NCBI GenBank assembly: GCA_045656285.1 | Contig: JAZOQY010000057.1 | Span: 1,845 to 65,844 of the forward strand | DNA length: 64,000 bases | Origin: Kiritimatiellia bacterium | GTDB taxonomy: Bacteria; Verrucomicrobiota; Kiritimatiellia; RFP12; UBA1067 | Direction of reading: 5' to 3' | In this document: in pieces, positions 4,972 through 64,000 of the stretch | Position numbering within the stretch: the first letter of the stretch is position 1 | Layout: each line of letters starts with the position of its first letter | The notes under the pieces: model-generated | Told to the model about the DNA's origin: nothing | Seen by the model: only the letters and a program-made list of their open reading frames with translations | Databases searched by the model: none | Made by a program: the position numbers and the translations under genes

Positions 4972-7900
4972 CTACTTGATCTCCAATCTGATTTCATCGG
5001 AATTGCCGCGAAGACGAGGCGCGTACATAGCTTCGACTTTCGCGGGCAAAACGTGTATAACACCCGGCGTCTCGACTCTTACGCGATAGGTGAAAGAATG
5101 GGCGCCGCGTGAGATTTCTCTAAGGAAGATGGCCGTCTTCTTCTCGCGATTCTCGACATACGCCCAACCGCCGCCGAGATTCTTCCAACCGCTCATTCCA
5201 TCCAGCGGCTCAAAGCCCGCGCCCTTCCTGTCTTCGATAAGAATATACTCGTAGTCGTTCTTCGAGTCTAAATCGACCCGAATCTCAAGCGTTTCGCCCG
5301 CCTTGACCGCGTCGCCGTCATTGAGCGTAGTTAAGACTTCTTTCGTGCGCTTTTGAGCGAGCGACTGGCCTGAAGCGCCGCGCCCTGTCGAATCCTCAAC
5401 AACCTCACTTACGCGCGAAATCGTACGATTTACCTTAAGCTCAAGCCCCGCCGCTTTAATAGGCTCTTCGTATGTAAGGTAAGTCAAATATCCGCTCACG
5501 TATTTTTCATTTTTCTTCTCGACCTTGCGGCAATATTCGGCGAGCGCCTCAATCGCAAGCCCCGTATCGCGCGTATTCGTCCAATGCGTGCGCGAAATGC
5601 GGTTGTTGTACAGATAAAGCGCGAGGCCGCGCGTCGCGTCGCTCGTCGGCTCAACTTTCAAAAAGAGTTTCAGCGCCATTGCCTGAGCCTCGAAATCGCT
5701 GCCGTACCAGCACCACCAATAACCGTGGTTGCCAAGTTCAAGATACGCCGTGCCGTTTTCGGAATCCTCCTTGAGGAACTGCTTCAAGTTCCGCACTACC
5801 GTATCGCGCTTCTCGACTTCCCTGGTCAAATCGAACGCGAGGCCCAGAAGCGCTTGAGCATAGACAGGCAAGTCCAGCCGCGTGTCGTACGCAAGGCGCA
5901 TCATCTCTTTCGCCGTGGCGTCAGCCTTGCCGTCCGTAGCGAGCAATATCGCATACGCCGTAAGGACATCGTTCGCCCAAGGACGCGTCTTATGCTTCTT
6001 TATGTATCCCAGCGACTCCCTTTGACGCTCCTTCAGCCACTTTACGCCACCATCCATCACTGTGCCGGGAACTTCAACGCCATGGCGCTTCGCCTCGGCG
6101 AGCCCACGCACGATCGTCGCGGTCATGTGCTCATAGGAATGCTCGTAAGAGCCCCAGAACCAGCCCCAACCGCCGTCGGAATTCTGGCGCTCGGAAAGTT
6201 TCATAAGACTCTTCTCAATCAACTCGTCAACATCCTTCAACCTGTCGCCAAAGCCTCTGGCGACGAGAACGTCTCTCGCTGCCGCAGCCGGAACAAAGCG
6301 GTTCATCGTCTGCTCGTTGCATTCGTATTCGTAGTACTTCAGATAATCGAGCGACTTATCTATCGCGCCTGCGAGCGTATCGGAAACTTCGACCACGGCG
6401 CGCAAATCTTTAGCCTCATTCTTATCGGGAAGATTAAAACCGAGTTTCTTGTACATCTCAAGCGCCTCATCGCCCTCGTAAACCCTGCAATCCATTTTCT
6501 CAAGCGAAGAAAGAATCTTAAAGCAGCTCTCCGTCTTTTCGACGGCGTGTGAGACGACATCAAAACTCTTCTCTACGCCATCAGAAAGTTCAGCGTCCGC
6601 GACGCGCATGCGAGCGGTAAGTTTACCGGAAGAAAGAACCTTAATACGCCAATCTGCCCGCGCCTCGCCTCCGGCATTAATGGAAACTGTCTTTGAACTT
6701 GTATCGCCTTTGATTTCAACGCCCTTCAAATCGATTGAGGCGGTTACTTGTCGCGCTTTATCGCTGTAATTATGAAGATTAGCCGAAATAACAACCTCAT
6801 CCTTTTCGGTAAAGAATCGCGGCGTTATCATTCTAAGCATCAGATCTTTTTTCGTGATGAGCTCAGTCGCGACCTCCGCAACACGCCCGTCGATTCCGAT
6901 CGACCACACCTTTATATTCCATGTCGTAATATCTTCAGGCATCTTGAATTTAACGCGATAAACGCCCTGTGTACCCGTCGCTTCAAGCGCGGCGTTCCAG
7001 TATGCCGTATCGGCAAAATCCTTCCTGACGCCACCGGCTTTCGCACAGCCATTTTCCGAACTCACAGGAGAAAGACAAGCCATAGGTTCACACGCCACAG
7101 AAGCGTCACACTCCATCACAGGTTCAGCCTGAGGGGCCGCACTTCTCGACCTTTTCTTCTCTAATCTACTTCTGCCGATCGTTTTAGATCCGAGAAATCC
7201 GATCGCATATTCACCCCAAAGACCAAGCGGTCCAAAATTTTCATCACCAGAAAGATATATACAATTAAAGCCGTCAACTATCGTATTCAAAAATGAATGC
7301 GGAAAATTAAGGCGATCGAACCAAAACGCTTCTTTAAGACTTTTTACATTACTACCGCCCGCAATCAAATCAATCGCCTTGTCGTAAACGGTCATAACCG
7401 CTGATGCGTCTGCAGCCTTACCCTTCTCGTCAAAAATCTTAACGGTAGCCGAAACAGTTTCGCCGGGCTTTACGACTTCGAGGCCGCCATCTATCTCGAC
7501 AGTAGCCTTACCGATTTTATCGACCGGCGGCACCATAATTTCGCGAACCTCACGATGATACTTCGCTTGAGAAAAAGTCCACGCTTCAACAAAGAAATTC
7601 GGCTTGTCGCTTTCGACTACAGGAATTGATATTTCGCCCGTCTTGCCTTTAAGACGGAGAAGTTGGGTCTTACCGTTGCGAACTTTGTAAAAAACGGTCG
7701 AATCGGAATAGTCCGCATTGACCGTAAGTTTTACAGTATCGCCCGGCGAATAAGTTTCTTTATCGGGAATAAGCTCCAGCGACGAATACTTGTAGTTTCG
7801 CCCGTCATCACCCTCTCCTCTGACAAGAATTATGCGCGAGCCTTCACAAACTCTCCCTTTTATGTCAGTAACTTCAACTGAAACTCTGTACTGCCCGGGT

Positions 7901-10692
7901 TTAGACGCCGAAAACACCTTACTAACATTTTCACTAACATTTTCCTTCTTTCCGATTCCCTCGTACCTCAAATCACTTATCCAATACCGAACCTCCTTAA
8001 CATCACCCTCGCGAAGCCCATCAAAATGATGAAAAACACTAACCTTATCGCCGACACGGTAATGCGGCTTATCAGTCCACGTAAAAACGCGGAACGGTTC
8101 GGCACGAACAATTACCGAACCCGTCGCGTCAATCGTGCGGTGCGAATTATCAGTAACTGAAACCGAAATGGAATATTCCTGATCATCATCACCATAAAGT
8201 TTGCGCACCAATGACGTATCCCAGACAACCTTTACTTCGCCGTTCTCATCAAGAGGAACATTCTTCATCGTAACCACAGTTTCGGGCGCCGGCGAAGATC
8301 CATACCAACGATGACAGTTGCGCCTGCAGATCCAAAGATTCCCTAACCCGCAATACCAATCGGCATCATAAAAACACCAATTAGATCCGTTTTCGTAAAG
8401 CCAGGACCACTCACAGGAAGGATACCACGTTATTCTGCGCGGAGTACGCCGGACAGTCACATCCGCAACGCCTTTTTTTACGCTATCACCCCAAAGATAT
8501 TTAGCCCTTACCGTCGCCGAAACCTTTTCGCCCAGCATTGGAGCGTTATTTGGCGTATCGACTGACACCTCGAACTCGGGCTTACGGTATTCCTCGACTC
8601 TAAATGTCGAACGAATCTCATCGTAACGTCCTTCTTCGTATGTCGATATCGCATACTTCCCAAGCTTCGCGTCATCTGGTATTTCAAATTCGCCCGCTAA
8701 ACCACCGAATCTATCTAGAGTGGATTTTTTTTCACTCAGCTTATTCTCCATTGGATCATATATTCTTAAAGAAATCTTTACGCCTTCCAAGGAGTTTTGA
8801 TTACCATATCCGCCATTGCGCATCCAAAGCTTATATTTTACCGTATCGCCGGGACGATAGGCGGGGCGGTCGGTTATTATTACACCTCGACGACGGTCTT
8901 GAGAACTATAGTCAATATAATAATTATACCAATATGAATCAACAACCTCCAACGCGCCATCCGGAGAAGTTATCGTAATATATCCATCCCGACTGCGGTT
9001 CAGCAAAGGTATTTTCGCATATCCATTTTCATCGGTAAATACAGGACCGATTTCTTTATATTCAAACTTTCGATCTTTATTAAACGTAGCGTGAAACTGA
9101 AACGCTTCTATTTTTGCGGTTTTAACGGGAGCGCCGGTCTCAGCATCTACAATGTAAAGGCCACCACCGTCTTTTACGGCAAAGGATTCCTTAACTGCCG
9201 CCAAACGCTGCACACGCAAAATCGAATGAATTCTATTACCGCCCTTAGCCGTAACCTCTAAAAGATAATCACCTTGAGGCAAATCATACGGAACTTCTAT
9301 TTCCTTTTTGGCGTCAAAATGATCTTTAGGCGACGAAACTTTTTGGCTCCATGAATACTTTTCACCTATCAGATATTTTTCGACCTTTTTCAAATCCTTT
9401 AATCTTATCAAGAATCTGGCAACATCCCATAAATTATAATAATCATTTCTTTTACGATTATTCTTGACATCATCTTTAACTTCTTCCAAATATCTGGCCA
9501 CGTCGATTTTCACAAGCGAAAATTCCAATTCATCGGCGTTCCTGAAATTAACCTCAAATCTGCCGCGCTTTTTATAGCTTACGACCGGCACATTTCCGGA
9601 AAGCGAGACATTCGGAGATGAAATACTCTCAACACAATGGCTGCAGCCTTTGCCCGCCTTTTTCCACATTTCGCACGCTTTCACAAATTGATAGCGCCGT
9701 TCGTATTCTTGAGCTATGCTTGCGTAATCGCCAAGCTCGCGCCACATTCTCATGTAATTATATTCAACGGGAAGCTTAAAACGTTTAACTCCGTTGGCGA
9801 GCCTGGTAATAGTCTCATCATCATCAAGAGACTTTAAATCCTCAATAAGTTTTTTAAGATCACCTTCGTCTCTCAACCTGTAAACGCCGAACTGATTTTC
9901 GGCGAATGCGCCTAACGAACGCGCCGAATTGCGACGCCCGAAATCGTCAACCGCCGCGCGCGCGGTATTAGCGAACATCCATCTCTCGCCGTCGTTCTTG
10001 GCATCTTCCCAATTTTTGACAAGACCGTAAAAAAGAGGTTCTCCATTCTCATCAACGGGCGCGGGGCCCACTTCAAAATCGCTGTCACCCCAGTTTTCCC
10101 TTTCGTCTATCGGCGGAATTTCCTTTAAGGAAGTCAATTCCTGAAGCTTCCACGCAGCGCCCCTGTTTCGAGCGTTCATTTCGAGGGCGTTGACGACTTC
10201 ATTCCAGAACCAACGTTGGCGAAGTTTAGTCTGTTTAGGCAAATCCGGCATAATCGCCTCTAAACACTTTAGGCGCTTAACCCTATCATGCTCTACAGAA
10301 GAGTAAGGTGCTCCCCACTCGTTCACTCTGGAAAATACGCCCTTTACCGTTTTACCGTAACGCGGCAATTCCCCAAGCGCCTGCGAATACGCGACGTGAA
10401 CGGCAAACTCCCTGCGCTCCAAAATCGCTTTGTCGAGCAACGGCTCTGCCTCATCGAAGCGCTTAAGTTTCGCTAAGCACCTCGGCGCATCAAGGAGAGA
10501 CTGCGCGCGATTCCCGTCGGTAACATTCGCACCATCAGGCGCGAATACGATGTTCGTATAGGCCACATACGCCTCGGCATAGTGACCCTTTTCCATAAGC
10601 AAAGCTGCGTCTTTTATATCGGTTGCAAAAACTTGAAAGGATGCAAAAACGCCTACTGCAACAGCGAGCGCTGAGAAAAGATTATGTCGCAC
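4972..10692 (-). CDS. alpha-2-macroglobulin family protein (large, secreted, thioester-containing)
   Basis: - Track ORF 4972..10824 trimmed to GTG at 10692, which follows GAAGGAGG by 5 nt and avoids overlap with the upstream gene.
- The N-terminus VRHNLFSALAVAVGVFASFQVFA looks like a signal peptide.
- It has an RKDFADTAYWNAAL motif (A2M_N_2-like) and a thioester-type motif YEYECNEQT (CNEQ at 6310-6321). Confidence 0.85.
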   Translation of the reverse strand: MRHNLFSALAVAVGVFASFQVFATDIKDAALLMEKGHYAEAYVAYTNIVFAPDGANVTDGNRAQSLLDAPRCLAKLKRFDEAEPLLDKAILERREFAVHVAYSQALGELPRYGKTVKGVFSRVNEWGAPYSSVEHDRVKRLKCLEAIMPDLPKQTKLRQRWFWNEVVNALEMNARNRGAAWKLQELTSLKEIPPIDERENWGDSDFEVGPAPVDENGEPLFYGLVKNWEDAKNDGERWMFANTARAAVDDFGRRNSARSLGAFAENQFGVYRLRDEGDLKKLIEDLKSLDDDETITRLANGVKRFKLPVEYNYMRMWRELGDYASIAQEYERRYQFVKACEMWKKAGKGCSHCVESISSPNVSLSGNVPVVSYKKRGRFEVNFRNADELEFSLVKIDVARYLEEVKDDVKNNRKRNDYYNLWDVARFLIRLKDLKKVEKYLIGEKYSWSQKVSSPKDHFDAKKEIEVPYDLPQGDYLLEVTAKGGNRIHSILRVQRLAAVKESFAVKDGGGLYIVDAETGAPVKTAKIEAFQFHATFNKDRKFEYKEIGPVFTDENGYAKIPLLNRSRDGYITITSPDGALEVVDSYWYNYYIDYSSQDRRRGVIITDRPAYRPGDTVKYKLWMRNGGYGNQNSLEGVKISLRIYDPMENKLSEKKSTLDRFGGLAGEFEIPDDAKLGKYAISTYEEGRYDEIRSTFRVEEYRKPEFEVSVDTPNNAPMLGEKVSATVRAKYLWGDSVKKGVADVTVRRTPRRITWYPSCEWSWLYENGSNWCFYDADWYCGLGNLWICRRNCHRWYGSSPAPETVVTMKNVPLDENGEVKVVWDTSLVRKLYGDDDQEYSISVSVTDNSHRTIDATGSVIVRAEPFRVFTWTDKPHYRVGDKVSVFHHFDGLREGDVKEVRYWISDLRYEGIGKKENVSENVSKVFSASKPGQYRVSVEVTDIKGRVCEGSRIILVRGEGDDGRNYKYSSLELIPDKETYSPGDTVKLTVNADYSDSTVFYKVRNGKTQLLRLKGKTGEISIPVVESDKPNFFVEAWTFSQAKYHREVREIMVPPVDKIGKATVEIDGGLEVVKPGETVSATVKIFDEKGKAADASAVMTVYDKAIDLIAGGSNVKSLKEAFWFDRLNFPHSFLNTIVDGFNCIYLSGDENFGPLGLWGEYAIGFLGSKTIGRSRLEKKRSRSAAPQAEPVMECDASVACEPMACLSPVSSENGCAKAGGVRKDFADTAYWNAALEATGTQGVYRVKFKMPEDITTWNIKVWSIGIDGRVAEVATELITKKDLMLRMITPRFFTEKDEVVISANLHNYSDKARQVTASIDLKGVEIKGDTSSKTVSINAGGEARADWRIKVLSSGKLTARMRVADAELSDGVEKSFDVVSHAVEKTESCFKILSSLEKMDCRVYEGDEALEMYKKLGFNLPDKNEAKDLRAVVEVSDTLAGAIDKSLDYLKYYEYECNEQTMNRFVPAAAARDVLVARGFGDRLKDVDELIEKSLMKLSERQNSDGGWGWFWGSYEHSYEHMTATIVRGLAEAKRHGVEVPGTVMDGGVKWLKERQRESLGYIKKHKTRPWANDVLTAYAILLATDGKADATAKEMMRLAYDTRLDLPVYAQALLGLAFDLTREVEKRDTVVRNLKQFLKEDSENGTAYLELGNHGYWWCWYGSDFEAQAMALKLFLKVEPTSDATRGLALYLYNNRISRTHWTNTRDTGLAIEALAEYCRKVEKKNEKYVSGYLTYLTYEEPIKAAGLELKVNRTISRVSEVVEDSTGRGASGQSLAQKRTKEVLTTLNDGDAVKAGETLEIRVDLDSKNDYEYILIEDRKGAGFEPLDGMSGWKNLGGGWAYVENREKKTAIFLREISRGAHSFTYRVRVETPGVIHVLPAKVEAMYAPRLRGNSDEIRLEIK

Positions 10693-53914: not shown

Positions 53915-55381
53915 CTAGTTTCCGTTGGCGTGGGGGCACGATGCGCACGGACACTTGTAGCCCTCGCCGTCGATAGACACGTCCTTGCCGGTCCAGCAGT
54001 AGGTACACAGATTCTCGGCGGGAAGTCCGATCGCCTTGACGAGATCATCGATCCGCTGGAACGCGAGCGACGTAAGATTGAGCTTTTCGCGGATGAACTC
54101 GACCATACGAGCGTAGGGCTCGCCATCGGCATCAATATACTTCGAAACGTCCGCGTTCTCGCCCTCATGCCCGCGGATATAACGGCGCGTGACGAGATCG
54201 TACTCGCTCTTTGAACGAGAGAAGTTAAGAAACTTGCAGGGATACAGAAGCGGCGGGCTCGCGATACGCATGTGCGTTTCGAGGCAGCCCTCGGAATAGA
54301 GCTTTATGGCCTGCTTGCCGAGCTGGGTGCCGCGGACGATCGAGTCGTCGCAGAAAACGAGCTTGCGGTTCTTGATGAGCCCGGGAATCGTGATAAGCTT
54401 CATCCTGGCGACATGCTCGCGCTGACGCTGATCGGACGGCATGAACGAGCGGGCCCAGGTAGGAGTGTACTTCACAAAGGGTCTTGCGTACTTGATCCCC
54501 GCCTCGTGCGCATAGCCGAGCGCATGGGAGATTCCGGAATCGGGGATTCCGCACGCGGCGTCGGCATCGGTCGGAGTGCGCTTGGCGAGCGCGCTGCCGC
54601 AGCGGTAGCGCGTCATTTCGATGTTGCGCCCTTCGTACGACGAGGCCGGATAGCCGTAGTACACCCAAAGGAACGAGCAGATCGCCATGCGCTTGCCGGG
54701 CTCGACGAGCGTAATGTCCACTTCGACGGTAAGCTCGACGACTTCACCCGGGCCGATGTCGCGAACATACTCGTAGCCGAGGTTGGCGAGCGCGCAACTC
54801 TCCATAAGCGCTATCATCGCGCCGTCCTTCTTGCCGAGAATCACCGGTGTGCGCCCCCAGCGGTCGCGCATGGCGTAAAGACGGCCGGTCTCGTCGATTA
54901 TGAGGATCGAGCAGCTGCCCTTTATCTTCTGCTGGACATACTTGAGGCCCTCAACGATCGACGACTGGGTCGCGATAAGCGCCGAAACAACTTCGGTCGG
55001 ACCTACCATTCCGCTCGTCGTCGAAAACTGCAGCTGCATCGAATTCTGCTCGAAAAGTTCCTTCTTAAGTTCATCGATATTATCGATGTAGCCTACCGTC
55101 ACGATGGCGAACGCGCCAAGCTTCGAGCACATGACGAGCGGCTGAGGATCGGTATCGGAGATTACGCCGATTCCGACCTTGCCCGAAAACTTCGGGATGT
55201 CATTCTCGAATTTGCTGCGGAACGGCGAATTCTGAATGTTGTGAATCGAGCGCTGAAAGCCCGATTCGTTCAAAAGCGCCATTCCGCCGCGGTGGGTTCC
55301 GAGATGTGAATGGTAATCCGTTCCGTAAAAGAGGTCAAGAACGCAATCGTCCTTGGAAATTACACCGCAGAACCCGCCCAT
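53915..55381 (-). CDS. purF: amidophosphoribosyltransferase-like class II glutamine amidotransferase
   Basis: N-terminal MGGFCGV (Ntn Cys) and a PRTase loop VFCDDSIVRGTQ. Has an extra Cys-rich C-terminal tail. Confidence 0.75.
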   Translation of the reverse strand: MGGFCGVISKDDCVLDLFYGTDYHSHLGTHRGGMALLNESGFQRSIHNIQNSPFRSKFENDIPKFSGKVGIGVISDTDPQPLVMCSKLGAFAIVTVGYIDNIDELKKELFEQNSMQLQFSTTSGMVGPTEVVSALIATQSSIVEGLKYVQQKIKGSCSILIIDETGRLYAMRDRWGRTPVILGKKDGAMIALMESCALANLGYEYVRDIGPGEVVELTVEVDITLVEPGKRMAICSFLWVYYGYPASSYEGRNIEMTRYRCGSALAKRTPTDADAACGIPDSGISHALGYAHEAGIKYARPFVKYTPTWARSFMPSDQRQREHVARMKLITIPGLIKNRKLVFCDDSIVRGTQLGKQAIKLYSEGCLETHMRIASPPLLYPCKFLNFSRSKSEYDLVTRRYIRGHEGENADVSKYIDADGEPYARMVEFIREKLNLTSLAFQRIDDLVKAIGLPAENLCTYCWTGKDVSIDGEGYKCPCASCPHANGN

Positions 55382-55395
55382 TTTTATAGCCTTTT

Positions 55396-55472
55396 TGGTG
55401 CGACTGACTGGGATCGAACCAGCAACCTTCGGCTTCGGAGGCCAACGCTCTATCCAATTGAGCTACAGTCGC
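55396..55472 (-). tRNA. tRNA-Arg (anticodon CCG), CCA encoded
   Basis: The reverse complement folds by hand as a cloverleaf:
- acceptor GCGACTG / CAGTCGC
- D arm GCTC / GAGC
- anticodon stem TTGGC / GCCGA with loop CTCCGAA
- T arm GCTGG-TTCGATC-CCAGT
- 3' ACCA. Confidence 0.93.
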
Positions 55473-55480
55473 GTATGTTG

Positions 55481-57064
55481 TCAGAATTCAAGCGCGTCGT
55501 ACATCATCGCGAGGAACTCGCCGTAGGTCATGCGCGTCTGCTTCATGGAATCGCGTTCGCGGACCGTGAACGTGCCGTCCTCGACGGACTGGGCGTCGAC
55601 GGTGATGCACCAGGGCGTTCCCGCCTCGTCCTGACGGCGATAGCGGCGGCCGATGGCGCCAGAGACGTCCCACATGACGTTGACCTTCTTCTGAAGCTTC
55701 ATGAAGATCTCGCGGGCAAGCTTGTCCTGGGCCTCGTCCTTCTTGATGAGCGGGAAGATGGCGACCTTGATGGGCGCAACCTTCGGGCTGAAGTGAAGGA
55801 CGGTGCGGATATCTTCTTTACCCTTCTCGTCAACGAGCTTCTCTTCCTCATAGGCCTCGCACAAAAGAGCGAGCATAAGGCGGTCGACGCCGGCGGAAGG
55901 CTCGATAACGTGGGGAACGTACTTACCGTCAAAAAGATTAAGGCAGAACTTCTCGGCGGCAACGGGATCCTTGCCGCGGGCGACCCAATCGGCCTGAACC
56001 TTCTCGATGAACGCCTTGCGGGCGGCCTCGTCCATCTTCTTGGCGGCCTGCTTCAGAGGATCGTCGAAGACCATCTGGGACTCGCCCGAATGCTTCTGGT
56101 GCTGCGAGAGGTCGAAATCGCTTCGCGCGGCGATGCCTTCGAGCTCCTGACGGCCGAAGGGGAAGTCGTATTCGATATCGACGCAGGCGCGCGCATAATG
56201 GGCGAGTTCGTCGGGCTTCTGCCAATATTCGACAAAGCGCTCGGTGGGAAGACCGACGGCGTTCAGGAACTTCTTGCGCTGCTCGACCCAGTACTTGTGC
56301 CAGACCTCCCAGCCCCAGTCGTCCTGAACGGGACCGTTGAGATCGGGATTATCGGCGAGAGTTACGACATGACCGTGAAGAATCTCAACCGCCTCATCGG
56401 GGCGGATGAAGAACTCGAGCTCCATCTGCTCGAACTCGCGGCTGCGGAACGTGTAGTTGCGCGGCGTGACTTCATTGCGGAAGCTCTTGCCCATCTGGGC
56501 GATACCGTAGGGAACGGCCTTGCGCGAAGTCGAAGTGACGTTCTGGAACTGGGCGAAAATCGCCTGAGCCGTCTCGGGACGCAGATACGCGACGTTCGAG
56601 GGATCCTCGATAGGGCCGACGATCGTCTTAAACATCAGATTGAAGGGCTTGGGCTCCGTAAGCTCGCCGCCGCAGTAGGGACAGAAGAAGTCGCTGCCGG
56701 CGATCTTGGGCTGAGGCTTCTTTTTCTGATCCTCGTAGATATCCTTGATCTGGTCGGCGCGCATGAGCTTTTTGCAGTCCTTGCACATCGTCATGGGATC
56801 GGCGAACGTATCAAGATGGCCCGACGCCTTCCAGATTTTCGGGTGCATGATGATCGTCGCGTCGAGACCGGCGACATCCTCGCGGCCACGGACGGTAAAC
56901 TGCCACCAGGCCTGCTTAACATTGTTCTTAAGCTCGCAGCCGAGCGGACCATAATCCCAAAAACCGGGCATTCCGCCGTAGATTTCGGACGAATGATAAA
57001 TAAAGCCGCGACGCTTGCAAAGAGCGCTGAGCGGATCGAGAGACGATTTGTTTTCTTCTGCCAT
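55481..57064 (-). CDS. glyQS: glycine--tRNA ligase (dimeric GlyQS type)
   Basis: Start MAEENKSSLD at 57064. RGFIYHSSEIYGGMPGFWDYGPLG and YLRPETAQ motifs. Confidence 0.92.
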   Translation of the reverse strand: MAEENKSSLDPLSALCKRRGFIYHSSEIYGGMPGFWDYGPLGCELKNNVKQAWWQFTVRGREDVAGLDATIIMHPKIWKASGHLDTFADPMTMCKDCKKLMRADQIKDIYEDQKKKPQPKIAGSDFFCPYCGGELTEPKPFNLMFKTIVGPIEDPSNVAYLRPETAQAIFAQFQNVTSTSRKAVPYGIAQMGKSFRNEVTPRNYTFRSREFEQMELEFFIRPDEAVEILHGHVVTLADNPDLNGPVQDDWGWEVWHKYWVEQRKKFLNAVGLPTERFVEYWQKPDELAHYARACVDIEYDFPFGRQELEGIAARSDFDLSQHQKHSGESQMVFDDPLKQAAKKMDEAARKAFIEKVQADWVARGKDPVAAEKFCLNLFDGKYVPHVIEPSAGVDRLMLALLCEAYEEEKLVDEKGKEDIRTVLHFSPKVAPIKVAIFPLIKKDEAQDKLAREIFMKLQKKVNVMWDVSGAIGRRYRRQDEAGTPWCITVDAQSVEDGTFTVRERDSMKQTRMTYGEFLAMMYDALEF

Positions 57065-57074
57065 AATGCGTGAT

Positions 57075-57083
57075 ATTATACCA
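57075..57083 (-). promoter_or_regulatory. extended -10 element (TGGTATAAT) immediately upstream of glyQS
   Basis: Minus strand reads cagaTTTGGTATAATatcacgcattATG, with 10 nt between the -10 and the ATG. Confidence 0.5.
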
Positions 57084-57126
57084 AATCTGATAATACGATA
57101 CAAATAGGAGTATTTCCCTTAACCGC

Positions 57127-59961
<2,835 letters not shown>

Positions 59962-59972
59962 TTATTTATTCT

Positions 59973-60001
59973 ATTATATCATTAAGAAACCCTCATGGCT
60001 A
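59973..60001 (-). promoter_or_regulatory. promoter TAGCCA-17-TGATATAAT for lacZ; the -35 is the terminal unit of CTAG block 1
   Basis: Minus strand: TAGCCA (60001-59996), 17-nt spacer, TATAAT (59978-59973) preceded by TGA. 26 nt to the ATG at 59946. Confidence 0.5.
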
Positions 60002-60335
60002 GTGGTAGAGAGGAACTAGATAGGCTAGAGTGTCTAGATGGGCTAGAGCCCTAGATTTCTAGAAATGCTAGACTTACTAGATGGACTAGAAGTTCTAGAT
60101 AATCTAGATAGTCGTTAGTCGCTAGTCGCTCTAGCCCCTCTAACCAATCTAGCCCGTCTAGTCTAGCCCCTCTAGCCCATCTAGCCTATCTAGGCTCCCC
60201 CTCGCTCCTAGCCCATCTAGCGCCTCTAGCCCATCTAGGCTCCCCCTCGCTCCTAGCTAATCTAGCGCCTCTAGCCAATCTAGCCTAGCCCCTAACTCCT
60301 AGTCCCTAGCCCCTCTCCCCCTAGCCTCGCCTTCA
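59997..60335. repeat. CTAG-dense block 1: two opposed arrays of a 9-bp unit (GGCTAGAn / nTCTAGCCC) around a TAGTCGY heptamer hinge
   Basis: I read 32 CTAG in about 325 bp, mostly spaced 9 bp apart. In the left arm CTAG is followed by A. In the right arm it is preceded by T and followed by C. A perfect palindrome ATTTCTAGAAAT lies at 60055-60066. Confidence 0.9.
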
Positions 60336-60972
60336 GCGCGGCGATCTCGCGCTTAAGCGAGGCGTTTTCGGCTTTCAGCGCGGCGATTTCTTCGTTTTGG
60401 GTCTTGCGCCGCCCTAAGCGCGCGGCGGTCATCCGCTCTCGAATACCGCCGTTTTCAGTAAAATCGGTTTCTTTGTTTTTAAGATGAGTGGCTATCATCT
60501 TATCAACCATATGACAAAGTGTATTGGCGCAATTAGCGAGCTCTTCGTCGGTCCACTTCTCGAAAAAAGGCTCATATTCTTCAAGCTTATTGCGCTGACG
60601 GCAAAACTTCAAAAGCCCGTCGTAACGCGGATGCTTTTTATCCCAGAGAACGAGCGAGCGCGAGCGAATATAATCAAGATAATCCTCTTTAAGTTCTTTA
60701 AGGCTCGCGCGGGCGACATTAAGAAGTTTAAGTTCCATTTCGGTCGAAGTAACGCCGTCAGCGCAGCCTTCAACGATGTTCTGCTTACCGCTACGCGCAG
60801 CCTGAATCATCTGATCGACGGTACGATCGCCATGACGAGGCAAAAAGCGCTTACAGAAAACATAAGTCATCTGATAAAGAACAACAGTCTTCTGATAGAA
60901 GAAGAGCTTCTCCCAGTTAGTCTGATCTCTAAGGATTTTAACCGGCTCTTTAGTAGGCTCATGTGGTTTCAT
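60292..60972 (-). CDS. four-helix-bundle protein (23S rRNA-IVS / Avd-like family) with suffix domain and C-terminal coiled coil
   Basis: NWEKLFFYQKTVVLYQMTYVFCKRF...DQMIQAARSGKQNIVEGC...LLNVARASLKELKEDYLDYI matches my memory of four-helix-bundle plus suffix-domain proteins. The C-terminus carries EEIAALKAENASLKREIAALKARL heptads. The last ~12 codons and the stop lie inside block 1. Confidence 0.7.
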   Translation of the reverse strand: MKPHEPTKEPVKILRDQTNWEKLFFYQKTVVLYQMTYVFCKRFLPRHGDRTVDQMIQAARSGKQNIVEGCADGVTSTEMELKLLNVARASLKELKEDYLDYIRSRSLVLWDKKHPRYDGLLKFCRQRNKLEEYEPFFEKWTDEELANCANTLCHMVDKMIATHLKNKETDFTENGGIRERMTAARLGRRKTQNEEIAALKAENASLKREIAALKARLGGEGLGTRS

Positions 60973-60981
60973 AGCAGTAAC

Positions 60982-61010
60982 ATTATAGCACTAAGCAAAG
61001 CCTCTGGCTA
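60982..61010 (-). promoter_or_regulatory. promoter TAGCCA-17-TGCTATAAT for the four-helix-bundle gene; the -35 is the terminal unit of CTAG block 2
   Basis: Minus strand: TAGCCA (61010-61005), 17-nt spacer, TATAAT (60987-60982) preceded by TGC. Only 9 nt to the ATG at 60972. Confidence 0.5.
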
Positions 61011-61320
61011 GAGAAAATCTAGAGAGTCGCTAGATGGGCTAGAGGGTCTAGATGAGCTAGAGTAGCTAGAGGGTCTAGAGCTCTAGATTTCTAGAAACGC
61101 TAGATAGGCTAGAGGTTCTAGACAATCTAGATAGTCGCTAGTCGTTAGCGGTTAGTCGTTAGTCTAGACTATCTAGCCCGTCTAGTCTAGCCCATCTAGC
61201 GCCTCTAGTTAATCTAGCCTAGCCCTTCTAGCCAATCTAGCCCCTCTAGCCCATCTAGTCTAGCGCTTCTAGCCTATCTAGCCCGTCTAGGCTCCCCCTC
61301 GCCTCTAGCCCCCGCCCTCG
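61006..61320. repeat. CTAG-dense block 2, homologous to block 1 (same arm/hinge/arm layout)
   Basis: I read 32 CTAG in about 300 bp, again phased at 9 bp. It shares long stretches with block 1: ctagatttctagaaa(t/c)gctaga, atctagatagtcg, atctagcccgtctagtctagccc, ctaggctccccctcgc. Confidence 0.9.
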
Positions 61321-61325
61321 CAACT

Positions 61326-61351
61326 AAAAAAGGCCCGGGTTGCCCCGAGCC
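61326..61351 (-). terminator. Rho-independent terminator after the surface-protein gene
   Basis: Minus-strand RNA forms GGCUCGGG-GCAA-CCCGGGCC followed by UUUUUU, about 30 nt after the stop at 61381. A T-run also follows on the plus strand. Confidence 0.75.
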
Positions 61352-61380
61352 TTTTAGTTCATCTAACCGCAATTCTGCGA

Positions 61381-64000
61381 TTATTCAGCGGACGTCGGCT
61401 GGCTCGCAGCTATCGGAGCGAAATCGACGAGAACGCGATAGAACGCTGCATCACCGATCGCAGGAGCGTTAAGCCCTGTCGTTACCGTAGCTTCGTCCGT
61501 ATCAACCTTATCGACAGCCGCTGCCGAGCGAACCGCGTAGTAAAGGCCAGGAAGCTCAGTCTCGAGCGCGACCGTTACATTGCCGTTCTCATCGAAGCTA
61601 ATGGCAGTAATCTCAGGCGTGACAACCGCTGGATTAAGCGCGACAGTTACCGTATACTTTCTTGTCGACTCATTAAGTGTAGCCGTCTTGGTGAAGTATG
61701 TAGCGTATGTCGCAGCATCAACGTCGGTTACACCCTCCGGAATAAGGATTTCAACCTTAGCCGCAGCCGCAGCCGCATCAGTAGCCGAAACCTCAATCGA
61801 ACCACTCGGCTCAATCGCCGGCTTCTCGACTACGGTGTAGAAGCCGTCAACAGGGCCTGTAATCTCATATCCTTCGGCTACGAACTTATCATTAGGCTTA
61901 GTTACATATTGGCCGCCAGTCAAAAGAAGAGAGCCTGTTGTTGTGCCGCCTGTTAAAGTTTGTTCTTCAACACAAATGTTTGAAACACTGATAGTTGCGC
62001 CATCATAAAACTCAAAGCCAAACCAGGCAGTAGAACTCTTAATTGTACCGCCCAAAAATTCAGCCCTAGCACCTCCCGCAACAGCGATTACAGCCGCGGA
62101 CTCACTCCCATTGTAGTCACCAGACTTCTGAAACACGCCATCGAGAACTTTAACCGCACCAGCCTTAACATTTAACAACCTATAGGTAGAAGCTTTATTG
62201 TGCACTACCGTATATTCTCCACCATCAATCTCAACATATGCACCATTATGCATACGAATACCATGATAATGCGTAGTGAGATTTACATTTACCAATTTAA
62301 GACTTATATTCTTAACAAGAATAGCTCCTTTATTACCTTCTGAGGCCACTGGAGTTTCGCAATAAATATTACCATTTTCAATAATGAAATCTGCTGAATT
62401 TTCATTTGCGAAATAAGCTAAAACACCACCATTAAGCGTCTTGCCGCCAAGGTCAATCGTGCCATTGAAGCCAGCAGGAATGGTGATATTCTCTGTCGTA
62501 TCCTTAATAAGCGTAACCTCAACACCAGCCGTTGTGCCCGCAGCCGTAAGAGCTTCCTGAAGCGTCTCATACTCCGTCTCGCCAATCTTAGCGACATTAT
62601 TCGAGACAGGGATTAGAGCTACAGTCCAGTAGCCATCTTCGCCTTCAGTAGCGGTATAGCCATCAGCGCACCATGTTGTTACATTATCATCTGTATTAAC
62701 AGCGGCAGGATTGAAGTCCTTGAACGTACCACCCTTGACAACAAAAGTGCCGGGTTCATCATTGCGGCTGTTCAATGTCCAACGAGGCGTCTGGCAAATG
62801 AACGTACCGCCGTTGATTTCGACAGAGCCACCATTTCTAACATAAATAAGGTCGAAGTGGGCTCCGTCTTCTTCGGACGTAGCACCTACGTTCGTATAAG
62901 TACCGCCATTGATAGTAACCTTACCACCATCTTTAGCCCAGACAGCCATGCACCAGTCATTCAAACCGAACGCATTAACCGTACCTTCGCCTTCGAGGGT
63001 GAGGTCGCCGCCAGCGACAACATAGAACACACCGTTACCTTCTGTATCATTGGTAGCAGCAATTGTCTTCCCGCCAAGGTTAACCGTCACCTTCTTGTTA
63101 ACGGTAATCGGGCCATCCGTAACAATATCAGCGATTACGGTAACAGTAGCACCAGCATTTGCAGCATTAACAGCAGCCTGAAGCGTCTGATACTTCGTTT
63201 CGCCAACCTGAGCCACAGGAGTTGCCGCGGTTACATCAGGTGTTGTGATTTCAGCACCGTTTTCACCAGAGTTGACCGTATAATCCTTAGAGGTCGAACC
63301 GTCAGCAAAAACCTTACCATCATCAGCCTTAAGAGTGAGTGTCACATCCGTGTTAGGATCAACAGCGATGGTGCCAGCTTCAACCACATTGCCATTTGCA
63401 TCATACCACTTAGTATTCGCAGGCGCCGCAGGAATCGTCACATTGACCTTCGCCACAGCGAGCTTGATGGTGTTGCCATCAACGACGTACTTGAGACCAG
63501 TAGGAGCGGTCGGCAAGGATGGCACGATGTCTGCGGCATTGTTGCAAGCGATGACCGTTTCGCCAGCTTCATCAGCGTGGGTGATGGTCAATGCACCAGC
63601 AACAGTAACATTGCCATTAACCGTCACCGGTCCCGCGAGGGTCGCGCCATCAGCGAGGGTAAATGTATTGACTCCTGAAATCGTACCTGAACCAGAAAGT
63701 GTGGACGTTTTGATTACAACAGGCTTTCGACCTTGACCACTTGGAACTCCATTAACCGTGCCATTAACTTCAAGGGCATTAAGTGTAATATCGTACTGAT
63801 TGCCCCAAGTTTTCAAGGTCAATGTATTTCCAGCAGCAACAATCAAGGTGCCCGTGAAACGGGAAAGGCCCGATGTAAAACCGGAATCACCAGTATTGCC
63901 AATCATTGCATTGGCATTAATCACAATCTTACCGGCGCCTGCGAATCCGCGATACAACTCTCCCGAGGATTGAATTTCGAGTTCGCCATTTACAGTAATG
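61381..64000 (-). CDS. large beta-helix / autotransporter-associated-repeat surface protein; its 5' end runs off the window
   Basis: The frame stays open to base 64000 (the M at 63957 in the track is a TTG). Gly/Thr/Asn/Val-rich beta-strand repeats. Two similar modules: VGETKYQTLQAAVNAANAGATVTVIADI and IGETEYETLQEALTAAGTTAGVEVTLIKDT. Confidence 0.7.
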   Translation of the reverse strand, partial: ITVNGELEIQSSGELYRGFAGAGKIVINANAMIGNTGDSGFTSGLSRFTGTLIVAAGNTLTLKTWGNQYDITLNALEVNGTVNGVPSGQGRKPVVIKTSTLSGSGTISGVNTFTLADGATLAGPVTVNGNVTVAGALTITHADEAGETVIACNNAADIVPSLPTAPTGLKYVVDGNTIKLAVAKVNVTIPAAPANTKWYDANGNVVEAGTIAVDPNTDVTLTLKADDGKVFADGSTSKDYTVNSGENGAEITTPDVTAATPVAQVGETKYQTLQAAVNAANAGATVTVIADIVTDGPITVNKKVTVNLGGKTIAATNDTEGNGVFYVVAGGDLTLEGEGTVNAFGLNDWCMAVWAKDGGKVTINGGTYTNVGATSEEDGAHFDLIYVRNGGSVEINGGTFICQTPRWTLNSRNDEPGTFVVKGGTFKDFNPAAVNTDDNVTTWCADGYTATEGEDGYWTVALIPVSNNVAKIGETEYETLQEALTAAGTTAGVEVTLIKDTTENITIPAGFNGTIDLGGKTLNGGVLAYFANENSADFIIENGNIYCETPVASEGNKGAILVKNISLKLVNVNLTTHYHGIRMHNGAYVEIDGGEYTVVHNKASTYRLLNVKAGAVKVLDGVFQKSGDYNGSESAAVIAVAGGARAEFLGGTIKSSTAWFGFEFYDGATISVSNICVEEQTLTGGTTTGSLLLTGGQYVTKPNDKFVAEGYEITGPVDGFYTVVEKPAIEPSGSIEVSATDAAAAAAKVEILIPEGVTDVDAATYATYFTKTATLNESTRKYTVTVALNPAVVTPEITAISFDENGNVTVALETELPGLYYAVRSAAAVDKVDTDEATVTTGLNAPAIGDAAFYRVLVDFAPIAASQPTSAE

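Follow-up and report, generated by a model that had tools for sequence, protein, structure and literature searches.

Periodic CTAG arrays bracket a four-helix-bundle suffix gene in Kiritimatiellia and recur beside its homologues in Bacteroidales

The window analysed here, a stretch of 64,000 nucleotides from a Kiritimatiellia bacterium (GenBank assembly GCA_045656285.1, contig JAZOQY010000057.1, positions 1,845 to 65,844 of the forward strand), contains two arrays of closely spaced CTAG tetranucleotides, one upstream and one downstream, which form a bracket around a single gene. On the minus strand, the order is a surface-protein gene, a terminator-like hairpin, the upstream array (block 2), a promoter-like site, the gene for a 226-aa four-helix-bundle protein and the downstream array (block 1), followed by a second copy of the promoter-like site and a beta-galactosidase-like gene. 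The features, in coordinates of the window, are:

61381-63957, minus strand: gene for an 858-aa surface protein
61330-61346, minus strand: intrinsic-terminator-like hairpin and T-run of the 858-aa surface-protein gene, directly before block 2 on the gene strand
61006-61320, no strand assigned: block 2, a CTAG lattice with 32 CTAG, upstream of the four-helix-bundle gene
61164-61308, plus-strand reading: right arm of block 2, TCTAGCCnn units, the reverse complement of the left-arm unit
61132-61164, plus-strand reading: hinge of block 2, TAGTCGY units with period 7
61008-61141, plus-strand reading: left arm of block 2, nnnGCTAGA/TCTAGA units
60982-61010, minus strand: promoter-like site TAGCCA-17-TGcTATAAT, its -35 hexamer being part of the last CTAG unit of block 2
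60292-60972, minus strand: 226-aa four-helix-bundle gene, its last codons and TAG stop lying inside block 1
59997-60335, no strand assigned: block 1, a homologous CTAG lattice with 32 CTAG, downstream of the four-helix-bundle gene, hinge at 60109-60130
59973-60001, minus strand: second promoter-like copy TAGCCA-17-TGaTATAAT, at the end of block 1
57127-59946, minus strand: beta-galactosidase-like gene

At the block-2 promoter-like site, where TCTAGCCAGAGGCTTTGCTTAGTGCTATAATGTTA is invariant in 8/8 orthologues, the -10 element ends 9 nt before the ATG, a near-leaderless arrangement; the block-1 copy precedes the ATG of the beta-galactosidase-like gene by 27 nt. The latter is followed by a glycyl-tRNA-synthetase-like ORF, both being read from translations without a profile scan, and the beta-galactosidase-like protein of the window had no exact look-up match on record.

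The 32 CTAG of block 2 are exactly the positions listed in a first-pass annotation of this DNA, with no others in 61000-61330. Neighbouring motifs are 9 bp apart in 20 of the 31 gaps, the remaining gaps measuring 8, 11, 5, 18 or 26 bp. The layout proposed by that annotation, a GCTAGA arm, a hinge and a TCTAGC arm, was confirmed, and the four segments it quoted as common to the two blocks occur in both and nowhere else in the window. Its claim that the blocks are homologous copies in direct orientation also holds: aligned with MAFFT (59990-60340 against 61000-61325), they are colinear at 81% column identity, have exact words of up to 23 nt in common and keep the same sub-segment order, including CTAGCGTTTCTAGAAATCTAGAGCTCTAG-type cores. 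Since this pairwise alignment reveals colinear similarity beyond the CTAG motif, the alternative of two independent tracts is excluded. The homology continues into the promoter-like element at the end of each block. This extension had been overlooked in the earlier reading, as had the bracketed gene and the near-absence of CTAG elsewhere.

Two familiar kinds of repeat were considered for block 2 and rejected. A protein-coding tandem repeat is ruled out by the lack of any ORF of at least 50 aa spanning the block on either strand, and by units of 8, 5 and 11 bp that break the frame. CRISPR arrays consist of direct repeats of ~23-50 bp with unique spacers of similar size, usually accompanied by cas genes, whereas here each unit has 4-6 constant and 3-5 variable bp, and the two arms are inverted.

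Outside the arrays, CTAG is scarce. The window holds 75 CTAG in total, of which the blocks account for 32 each and the other ~63 kb for 11, giving an observed/expected ratio outside arrays of 0.045; at this background rate, 0.05 CTAG would be expected per 315 bp. No further array was found in the other 62 kb. The ratio outside arrays is likewise low in the loci of homologous genes described below (0.079) and in the first 300 kb of a Prevotella nigrescens replicon (0.009). The share of CTAG that lies inside 9-bp lattices amounts to 85% in the window and 32% in that complete 568-kb replicon.

The enclosed protein is a member of the TIGR02436/PF05635 and TIGR04258 families. It matches TIGR02436 ('four helix bundle protein') at 36.7 bits (cut-off 24) and TIGR04258 ('four helix bundle suffix domain') at 52.9 bits (cut-off 40), the latter over residues 142-190 and the full profile length. 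Its score for PF05635 (23S rRNA intervening-sequence protein), 31.7 bits, falls just below the Pfam cut-off of 33.8; the PF05635 assignment is precomputed for every listed homologue. The closest named relatives, at 96-98% identity, belong to Kiritimatiellae MAGs, close relatives are annotated in their sources as 'four helix bundle suffix domain-containing protein', and at least 8000 sequence clusters pass E <= 1e-10 in a profile search. The AlphaFold2 model (pLDDT 78.9) predicts a bundle followed by one continuous helix at residues 177-220, and the top Foldseek matches in the PDB were XCC0516 (2GSC) and BT_0352 (2RLD), with target-normalised TM-scores of 0.72-0.80. This final helix opens with the motif GGIRERMTAARLGRRK, followed by the heptads IAALKAE/NASLKRE/IAALKAR, in which one 'a' position is occupied by Asn; by sequence, the helix matches nothing in the PDB except designed coiled coils, and the best of these matches are parallel dimers. 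Of 83 homologues read from DNA, 79 have the signature GGI[KR]ERM..AR.G.R together with a coiled coil, the length of which varies. The basic stretch is only moderately basic and contains a conserved glycine.

In its continuous helix, with a basic stretch preceding heptads that carry Asn at 'a', and in the palindromic nature of the putative target, the protein recalls bZIP factors. Unlike in these, the basic part is shorter and includes the conserved glycine, so that the resemblance is one of design only. Identity as a bZIP factor (basic-region N-x7-R/K plus zipper) was rejected, as a Pfam scan of the 226-aa protein returned no bZIP match and only a weak DivIC match; in relatives the matching family is PF02183, which describes a zipper alone. 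Profile scans revealed no nuclease, recombinase or transposase signature in the enclosed protein, and PADLOC defence-system models matched neither the protein nor the neighbours of one relative. A HEPN survey makes no mention of the four-helix-bundle suffix family (PMC3710099).

Variation among close relatives shows how the arrays evolve. The first-pass annotation had inferred expansion or contraction by units, and eight related Kiritimatiellae contigs substantiate a change in unit number: their eight distinct upstream blocks carry 23-32 CTAG, and the downstream block, present or absent among close strains, carries 0, 24, 25, 28 or 32. Indels between orthologous blocks are mostly of 9, 18, 36 or 9n+5 nt; array length changes by whole units. 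Per sequence pair, orthologous blocks differ at 0.034 of CTAG columns and 0.175 of spacer columns, a contrast of about five-fold that is inflated by the anchoring of the aligner on CTAG. The CTAG of the arrays are under purifying selection, in genomes that otherwise purge this word.

All eight Kiritimatiellae versions have retained the 3' end of the upstream gene, its terminator and the promoter, the terminator hairpin with one compensatory pair across the 8/8 orthologous loci; the cassette of the window is therefore orthologous at its upstream side. Recent mobility within Kiritimatiellae was rejected on the same grounds, because relatives at 96-99% identity have the upstream gene end and terminator of the window. 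The downstream neighbour is a beta-galactosidase-like gene in the window vs an AMP-binding enzyme operon in the orthologous loci, and a Kiritimatiellae relative at 88% identity occupies another context and has no arrays.

When one genome per species was scanned for runs of five CTAG spaced 9 bp apart, at least 120 loci were found, against about one expected by chance on our own estimate. Those listed are mostly from rumen and gut Bacteroidales, with some from Victivallales, Kiritimatiellia and Verrucomicrobia. The only protein family recurring beside the listed arrays is the four-helix-bundle family of the window (five loci): in three Bacteroidales loci, with homologues at 56-65% identity (L080, L035 and L046), arrays lie on both sides of the gene, and in two others (L037 and L114) on one side. 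Between loci, only CTAG and the period are common and the spacer letters differ, while the upstream and downstream arrays of one locus have a common spacer flavour. The distance from array to ATG ranges from 9 to ~190 nt, and no conserved cassette ends were found.

The association was examined further in 80 metagenome loci carrying homologues of 49-73% identity (392 kb, from Bacteroidales and other metagenomes). In 42 of 74 loci an array is found at the stop codon or immediately behind it, and 15 of 75 carry one upstream; six of 69 have arrays on both sides and 23 of 69 have none, and elsewhere in the 392 kb only three arrays occur. The period is usually 9, although it is 8 in a few loci and 10 in one protein subclade, the period-10 CCTAGGAAAn arrays going with one clade of the basic motif. 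The symmetric hexamers TCTAGA and CCTAGG are more frequent than expected in gene-linked arrays (302 observed vs 195 expected) and in solo arrays (414 vs 342); they are not enriched in the asymmetric arms of the Kiritimatiellae blocks (GCTAGA/TCTAGC). A gene of the four-helix-bundle suffix family accompanied by CTAG lattices constitutes a conserved module that crosses phyla. The earlier suggestion that a copied and maintained sequence of this structure argues for function or mobility and not chance is supported by this recurrence of arrays beside homologues of the enclosed gene in another phylum.

An origin of the arrays in chance low complexity, in two independent slippage tracts or in assembly error is hardly credible, and for the arrays themselves it is already refuted. 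Repeats of this kind do break assemblies, many homologue contigs being only ~1 kb long, and the downstream neighbour in the window differs from that in all orthologous loci. Against this stand the colinearity of the blocks at 81% identity, the excess of scan loci over the number expected, and the finding of the same architecture in independent assemblies of many samples and in the finished genome of a cultured strain.

This finished example is P. nigrescens FDAARGOS_1486, of which replicon NZ_CP082843.1 (567,798 bp) carries a single homologue (WP_004367454.1, annotated 'four helix bundle suffix domain-containing protein') with a four-unit array 48 bp after its stop. The replicon contains 53 CTAG, vs ~2194 predicted by base composition, and 17 of the 53 are in four period-9 arrays. 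Each of the four is found at the 3' end of a gene; the flanking genes are convergent for three of them and co-directional for one. Two are situated beyond a recognisable terminator hairpin, read by eye without a terminator scan. Eleven non-array CTAG occur in the first 300 kb; six of them fall in a stretch without annotated genes, and at least two of these six match what we take to be conserved 16S rRNA sequence. Most other non-array CTAG of the replicon are at 300-450 kb, where conjugative-transposon genes are numerous.

Most arrays found by the scan stand alone, and they invite comparison with dispersed selfish elements. In 115 of the 120 scan loci listed there is no homologue within 8 kb, and the genes next to solo arrays have, among the listed loci, no common functional class besides the four-helix-bundle family. 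According to crude ORF calls, 101 of the 138 arrays in these loci are intergenic, beginning ~10 bp after the upstream stop and ending ~40 bp before the next start, with 61 between co-directional, 17 between convergent and only 9 between divergent genes. These data are compatible with a REP- or MITE-like intergenic repeat without host function, for which the gene would be mobiliser, cargo or preferential insertion target. The common spacer flavour on the two sides of the gene, as if a pre-existing array had been split, points the same way, as do the presence or absence of the downstream block among close strains and the identity of 50-73% across phyla, which suggests horizontal transfer.

The gene is also found in many unrelated contexts, including Type I restriction-modification operons: neighbouring genes encode HsdS (14 loci), HsdR (12 loci) and HsdM (9 loci), assignments that Pfam confirmed for representatives, and in the hsd loci gene and array are packed co-directionally between hsd genes. 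Other neighbours of homologues are ORF6N and Bro-N/ANT genes. We nonetheless regard a purely selfish repeat as unlikely, though far from negligible. The gene lacks any nuclease, recombinase or transposase signature, the varying array-ATG distances betray no conserved cassette ends, and the Kiritimatiellae copies, that of the window included, are orthologous upstream and not newly inserted. The window has no other array in 62 kb, and the strong conservation of CTAG in genomes that purge it argues for selection. Copies are lacking in viral contigs and phage records too: no homologue was found in IMG/VR contigs or phage records, and a phage or plasmid origin was accordingly rejected, the single 'plasmid' match being a 568-kb second replicon.

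A known arrangement of this general kind is the REPtron, in which palindromic REP/BIME repeats occur at gene 3' ends as solo copies and around one flanked gene, RAYT. The CTAG arrays are similar in lying at gene 3' ends and in comprising dispersed solo copies and one array-flanked gene, but they are lattices in which a 4-bp core is repeated with free spacers and in variable number, not a fixed ~35-bp palindrome. A REPtron proper, with an HUH/Y1 transposase gene between inverted REPs, was rejected because the flanked gene encodes a helical bundle without a transposase domain. Integron attC sites offer a further parallel, in that a small gene directly precedes an imperfect palindrome that may include its stop and is co-directional within operons; unlike in integron cassettes, there is no nearby integrase, no cassette arrays were seen, and the palindrome of the window is periodic.

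The inverted arms give the blocks a strong folding potential, and this raises the question of a structured nucleic acid, such as RNA hairpins or DNA cruciforms acting as 3'-end or processing (RNase III-type) elements, terminators or insulators. Block 2 as ssDNA folds into a long imperfect hairpin of -85.3 kcal/mol (z -9.15 vs shuffles), as does block 1 as RNA (-169.3 kcal/mol, z -7.39 vs shuffles), and the hairpin is kept in all eight orthologues. P. nigrescens array 36085 is a near-perfect palindrome, spacers included; arrays lie at gene 3' ends; and the name-giving members of the family reside inside stem-forming rRNA intervening sequences (PMC4990558). Other results count against a selected structure. 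RNAalifold detected no covariation across the eight orthologous blocks (term +3.69), the only compensatory pair belonging to the separate terminator, and indels in the left arm are not matched by indels in the right arm. Folding was no weaker when the order of units was permuted (median z: gene-linked arrays -0.31, solo arrays 0.0, Kiritimatiellae blocks -1.06); as permuted orders fold equally well, folding follows from the palindromic units and not from a selected structure. Block 2 is moreover placed between a terminator and a promoter, and no Rfam family was matched in 59800-61500 at E <= 1. A structural role of this kind appears improbable, although not to be dismissed.

The rRNA intervening sequences themselves, as in Leptospira and Coxiella (S23p; PF05635/TIGR02436), share protein fold and family with the window, and there a small ORF is bracketed by stem-pairing sequences in an element regarded as selfish or of unknown function (PMC4990558). 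In contrast, the element of the window lies outside rRNA, is flanked by periodic CTAG arrays and not by a single stem, encodes a protein with an additional suffix domain and zipper, and has arrays that also occur without the gene. An rRNA intervening sequence was rejected, given the absence of an Rfam family and the protein-coding flanking genes. Avd of diversity-generating retroelements is a four-helix bundle that has a basic surface for binding both nucleic acid and a partner enzyme. It has the bundle fold in common with the protein of the window, and PF05635 has been linked to these retroelements (PMC10053308), but no reverse transcriptase is evident next to the gene. The retroelement assignment was rejected because the genes read beside it encode a beta-galactosidase-like and a surface protein; no RT-like family is prominent among the recurrent neighbours of the 80 homologue loci, the clusters being only partly annotated.

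The position of the arrays relative to the stop codon is not random. The stop codon is TAG in 47 of 82 homologues, and distances of 0, 9, 18, 27 or 36 nt between the stop and the first CTAG are far commoner than by chance; these being multiples of 9 nt, the array starts in phase with the stop codon. After the stops of homologues, 199 TAG are in frame vs 108 and 87 in the other two frames. In the window, the first arm of block 1 on the gene strand consists of TAG codons in frame with the stop of the four-helix-bundle gene, 14 TAG following it in frame as read from sequence comparison. The runs might thus serve as a back-stop to, or sensor of, amber read-through, for example by TAG-recoding gut phages, and the gene family has been linked to defence loci, 23S_rRNA_IVP genes being reported in 18 cas loci in a published survey (PMC3936711). 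Upstream arrays and those beyond terminators cannot be translated, however, periods of 8 and 10 lose the frame, the read-through peptides have no property common between loci, and in-phase anchoring is also expected from slippage seeded at a CTAG stop codon. A translational role is accordingly considered very unlikely.

The explanation we favour, tentatively and at somewhat less than even chances, is that the arrays are a double-stranded binding lattice for the dimeric protein encoded between them; there are no binding data. The encoded protein would dimerise through its C-terminal zipper, and the adjoining basic helix (GGI[KR]ERM..AR.G.R) would recognise the palindromic CTAG core on double-stranded DNA, with one dimer per ~9-bp unit, thereby coating the array. 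With CTAG nearly eliminated elsewhere, the arrays would be almost the sole landing places. Occupancy of block 2, the last unit of which overlaps the -35 hexamer, may feed back on the gene of the protein itself, and occupancy of block 1 may act on the downstream beta-galactosidase-like gene. Slippage of whole units would make the arrays grow and shrink while selection retains the CTAG cores. Both the binding and the resulting promoter regulation are inferred, from genomic association and structure prediction only.

Several lines of evidence favour such a binding lattice. Gene and array are tightly associated, the predicted dimer design of the protein is matched by a palindromic core, and CTAG is nearly unique to the arrays in these genomes. 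The array type follows the protein subclade, the same promoter-like site ends both blocks of the window, and symmetric hexamers are enriched in gene-linked arrays. Nothing but CTAG and the period is common between loci, and CTAG columns are more conserved than spacers. Arrays of the window and of P. nigrescens are placed past intrinsic terminators, where the DNA is probably not transcribed.

Other observations are difficult to reconcile with a binding lattice. A third of the homologue loci (23/69), as well as the relative at 88% identity, have no array, and downstream arrays are commoner than upstream ones, which is unusual for an autoregulatory operator. Periods of 8, 9 and 10 are awkward for one fixed protein lattice, and the Kiritimatiellae units are asymmetric. 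The stretch proposed to contact DNA is only moderately basic, includes a conserved glycine and has no Pfam bZIP match, while the co-variation of array type with protein clade could also reflect shared descent. Many Bacteroidales arrays, for instance those inside hsd operons, are located between co-transcribed genes, so that a role at the RNA level is not excluded. Nor is there a family precedent: to our knowledge, no sequence-specific DNA binder has been described in the 23S_rRNA_IVP/Avd family, and we know of no function assigned to the 23S-rRNA-IVS family outside diversity-generating retroelements since its description in 1993.

Precedents for the proposed arrangement exist in plasmid partition. 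In R1 ParR/parC, pB171 parC1/parC2 and the omega heptads of pSM19035, repeats in direct or inverted sets lie beside the gene of their binder, overlap its promoter and are bound cooperatively. The CTAG arrays resemble parC and iteron arrays in being short repeats beside or on both sides of a gene and overlapping its promoter, but differ in their chromosomal setting, in the lack of a partition NTPase and in a protein predicted to be a helical bundle with a zipper instead of a ribbon-helix-helix. A Type II or Ib partition centromere was rejected, there being no adjacent NTPase gene in the window or in related loci. As the defining features of the known systems are lacking, and nothing was found in the openly accessible literature on CTAG arrays or on the suffix-domain family, the gene-array system appears to be undescribed and outside the known kinds, its function being inferred only.

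A broader interpretation, which we consider doubtful and put forward as a conjecture, is that CTAG is a 'reserved word', purged 10- to 100-fold elsewhere and surviving only in the arrays, which would be dedicated landing sites of a hitherto uncharacterised helical-bundle-plus-zipper protein. The whole would be a new chromosomal protein-DNA system that marks gene ends, often resides inside Type I restriction-modification operons and has spread by horizontal transfer between Bacteroidota and Kiritimatiellota; one instance is located between dnaA and mnmG, a frequent site of replication origins. Array length differs between strains, and the arrays disrupt metagenome assemblies; the large share of surviving CTAG held in 9-bp lattices bears on the long-standing puzzle of CTAG avoidance in bacteria. 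A large subfamily is now tied to a simple, easily synthesised DNA pattern, which provides it with a testable DNA target, and in the cultured P. nigrescens direct tests of binding and regulation are feasible. If the 'reserved word' interpretation were true, a member of the 23S-rRNA-IVS/Avd family would, for the first time outside retroelements, have a defined nucleic-acid target.

Outside the two CTAG blocks, the window (1-64000) contains 11 CTAG against approximately 243 expected from composition, corresponding to a roughly 20-fold depletion. GTAC is also scarce (observed/expected 0.37), and TCGA, GCGC, and CGCG are over-represented. G+C content is only 0.445-0.484 at 6001-10000, compared with 0.54-0.63 over most of the window. 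A 587-aa ORF at 55310-57073 (+) lies antisense to an ORF at 55481-57103 (-), recognised as glycyl-tRNA-synthetase-like from reading of its translation; the former appears to be no gene itself but the shadow ORF of a gene rich in G+C.

Within the cassette, i.e. the 226-aa four-helix-bundle gene with its two flanking blocks, Tandem Repeats Finder detected a 21-bp period at the 3' end of the gene (60327-60390), which is the three heptads of the zipper seen at the DNA level. The downstream junction of the cassette (59946-60001, compared with L123:4882-4960) differed between the window and the orthologous Kiritimatiellae contigs: the neighbour is a beta-galactosidase-like gene in the window, whereas it is an AMP-binding enzyme operon in all the orthologous contigs read. 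The window is also alone in having a downstream block that terminates with a duplicate of the promoter belonging to the cassette itself. The difference derives either from rearrangement through the repeat or from an assembly join.

CTAG arrays were located at other loci, both with and without homologs of the 226-aa gene.

CTAG arrays at other loci
L050:5488-5938, Verrucomicrobia MAG (UBA3783): 49-unit array between dnaA and mnmG/gidA
L035:3972-4411, rumen MAG: 54-unit array of period 8, upstream of a homolog
L146, L149, L152, L154, L159, L137, L165, L177, L180, and others: homolog and array within a Type I restriction-modification operon

The replication origin usually lies in the neighbourhood of dnaA and mnmG/gidA, which were identified at L050 from reading of their translations. 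No four-helix-bundle homolog occurs within 8 kb of the array. The period-8 array of the rumen MAG comprises runs of CTAGGAGG, as well as CTAGAAGC alternating with CTAGAATG, and the local stretches in which one unit is repeated without change suggest recent slippage; a 12-unit array of period 9 lies downstream of the same homolog. A CTAG array is absent from an 88% identical Kiritimatiellae homolog (L222:3440-4200), which carries its own promoter of the TGCTATAAT type. An 880-aa gene without a match in Pfam or PADLOC begins in overlap with the stop of this homolog.

In the Type I operons, homologs and arrays are placed with hsdM/hsdS on one side and hsdR on the other, sometimes adjoined by ORF6N genes. 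Bro-N/antirepressor genes neighbour homologs at other loci (L176, L197, and L203). In the complete Prevotella nigrescens replicon NZ_CP082843.1, most of the CTAG outside arrays and rRNA falls in the 300-450 kb region (L233-L235), together with many conjugative-transposon, restriction-modification, and transposase genes; this concentration is as expected if the region were imported DNA still unpurged of CTAG.
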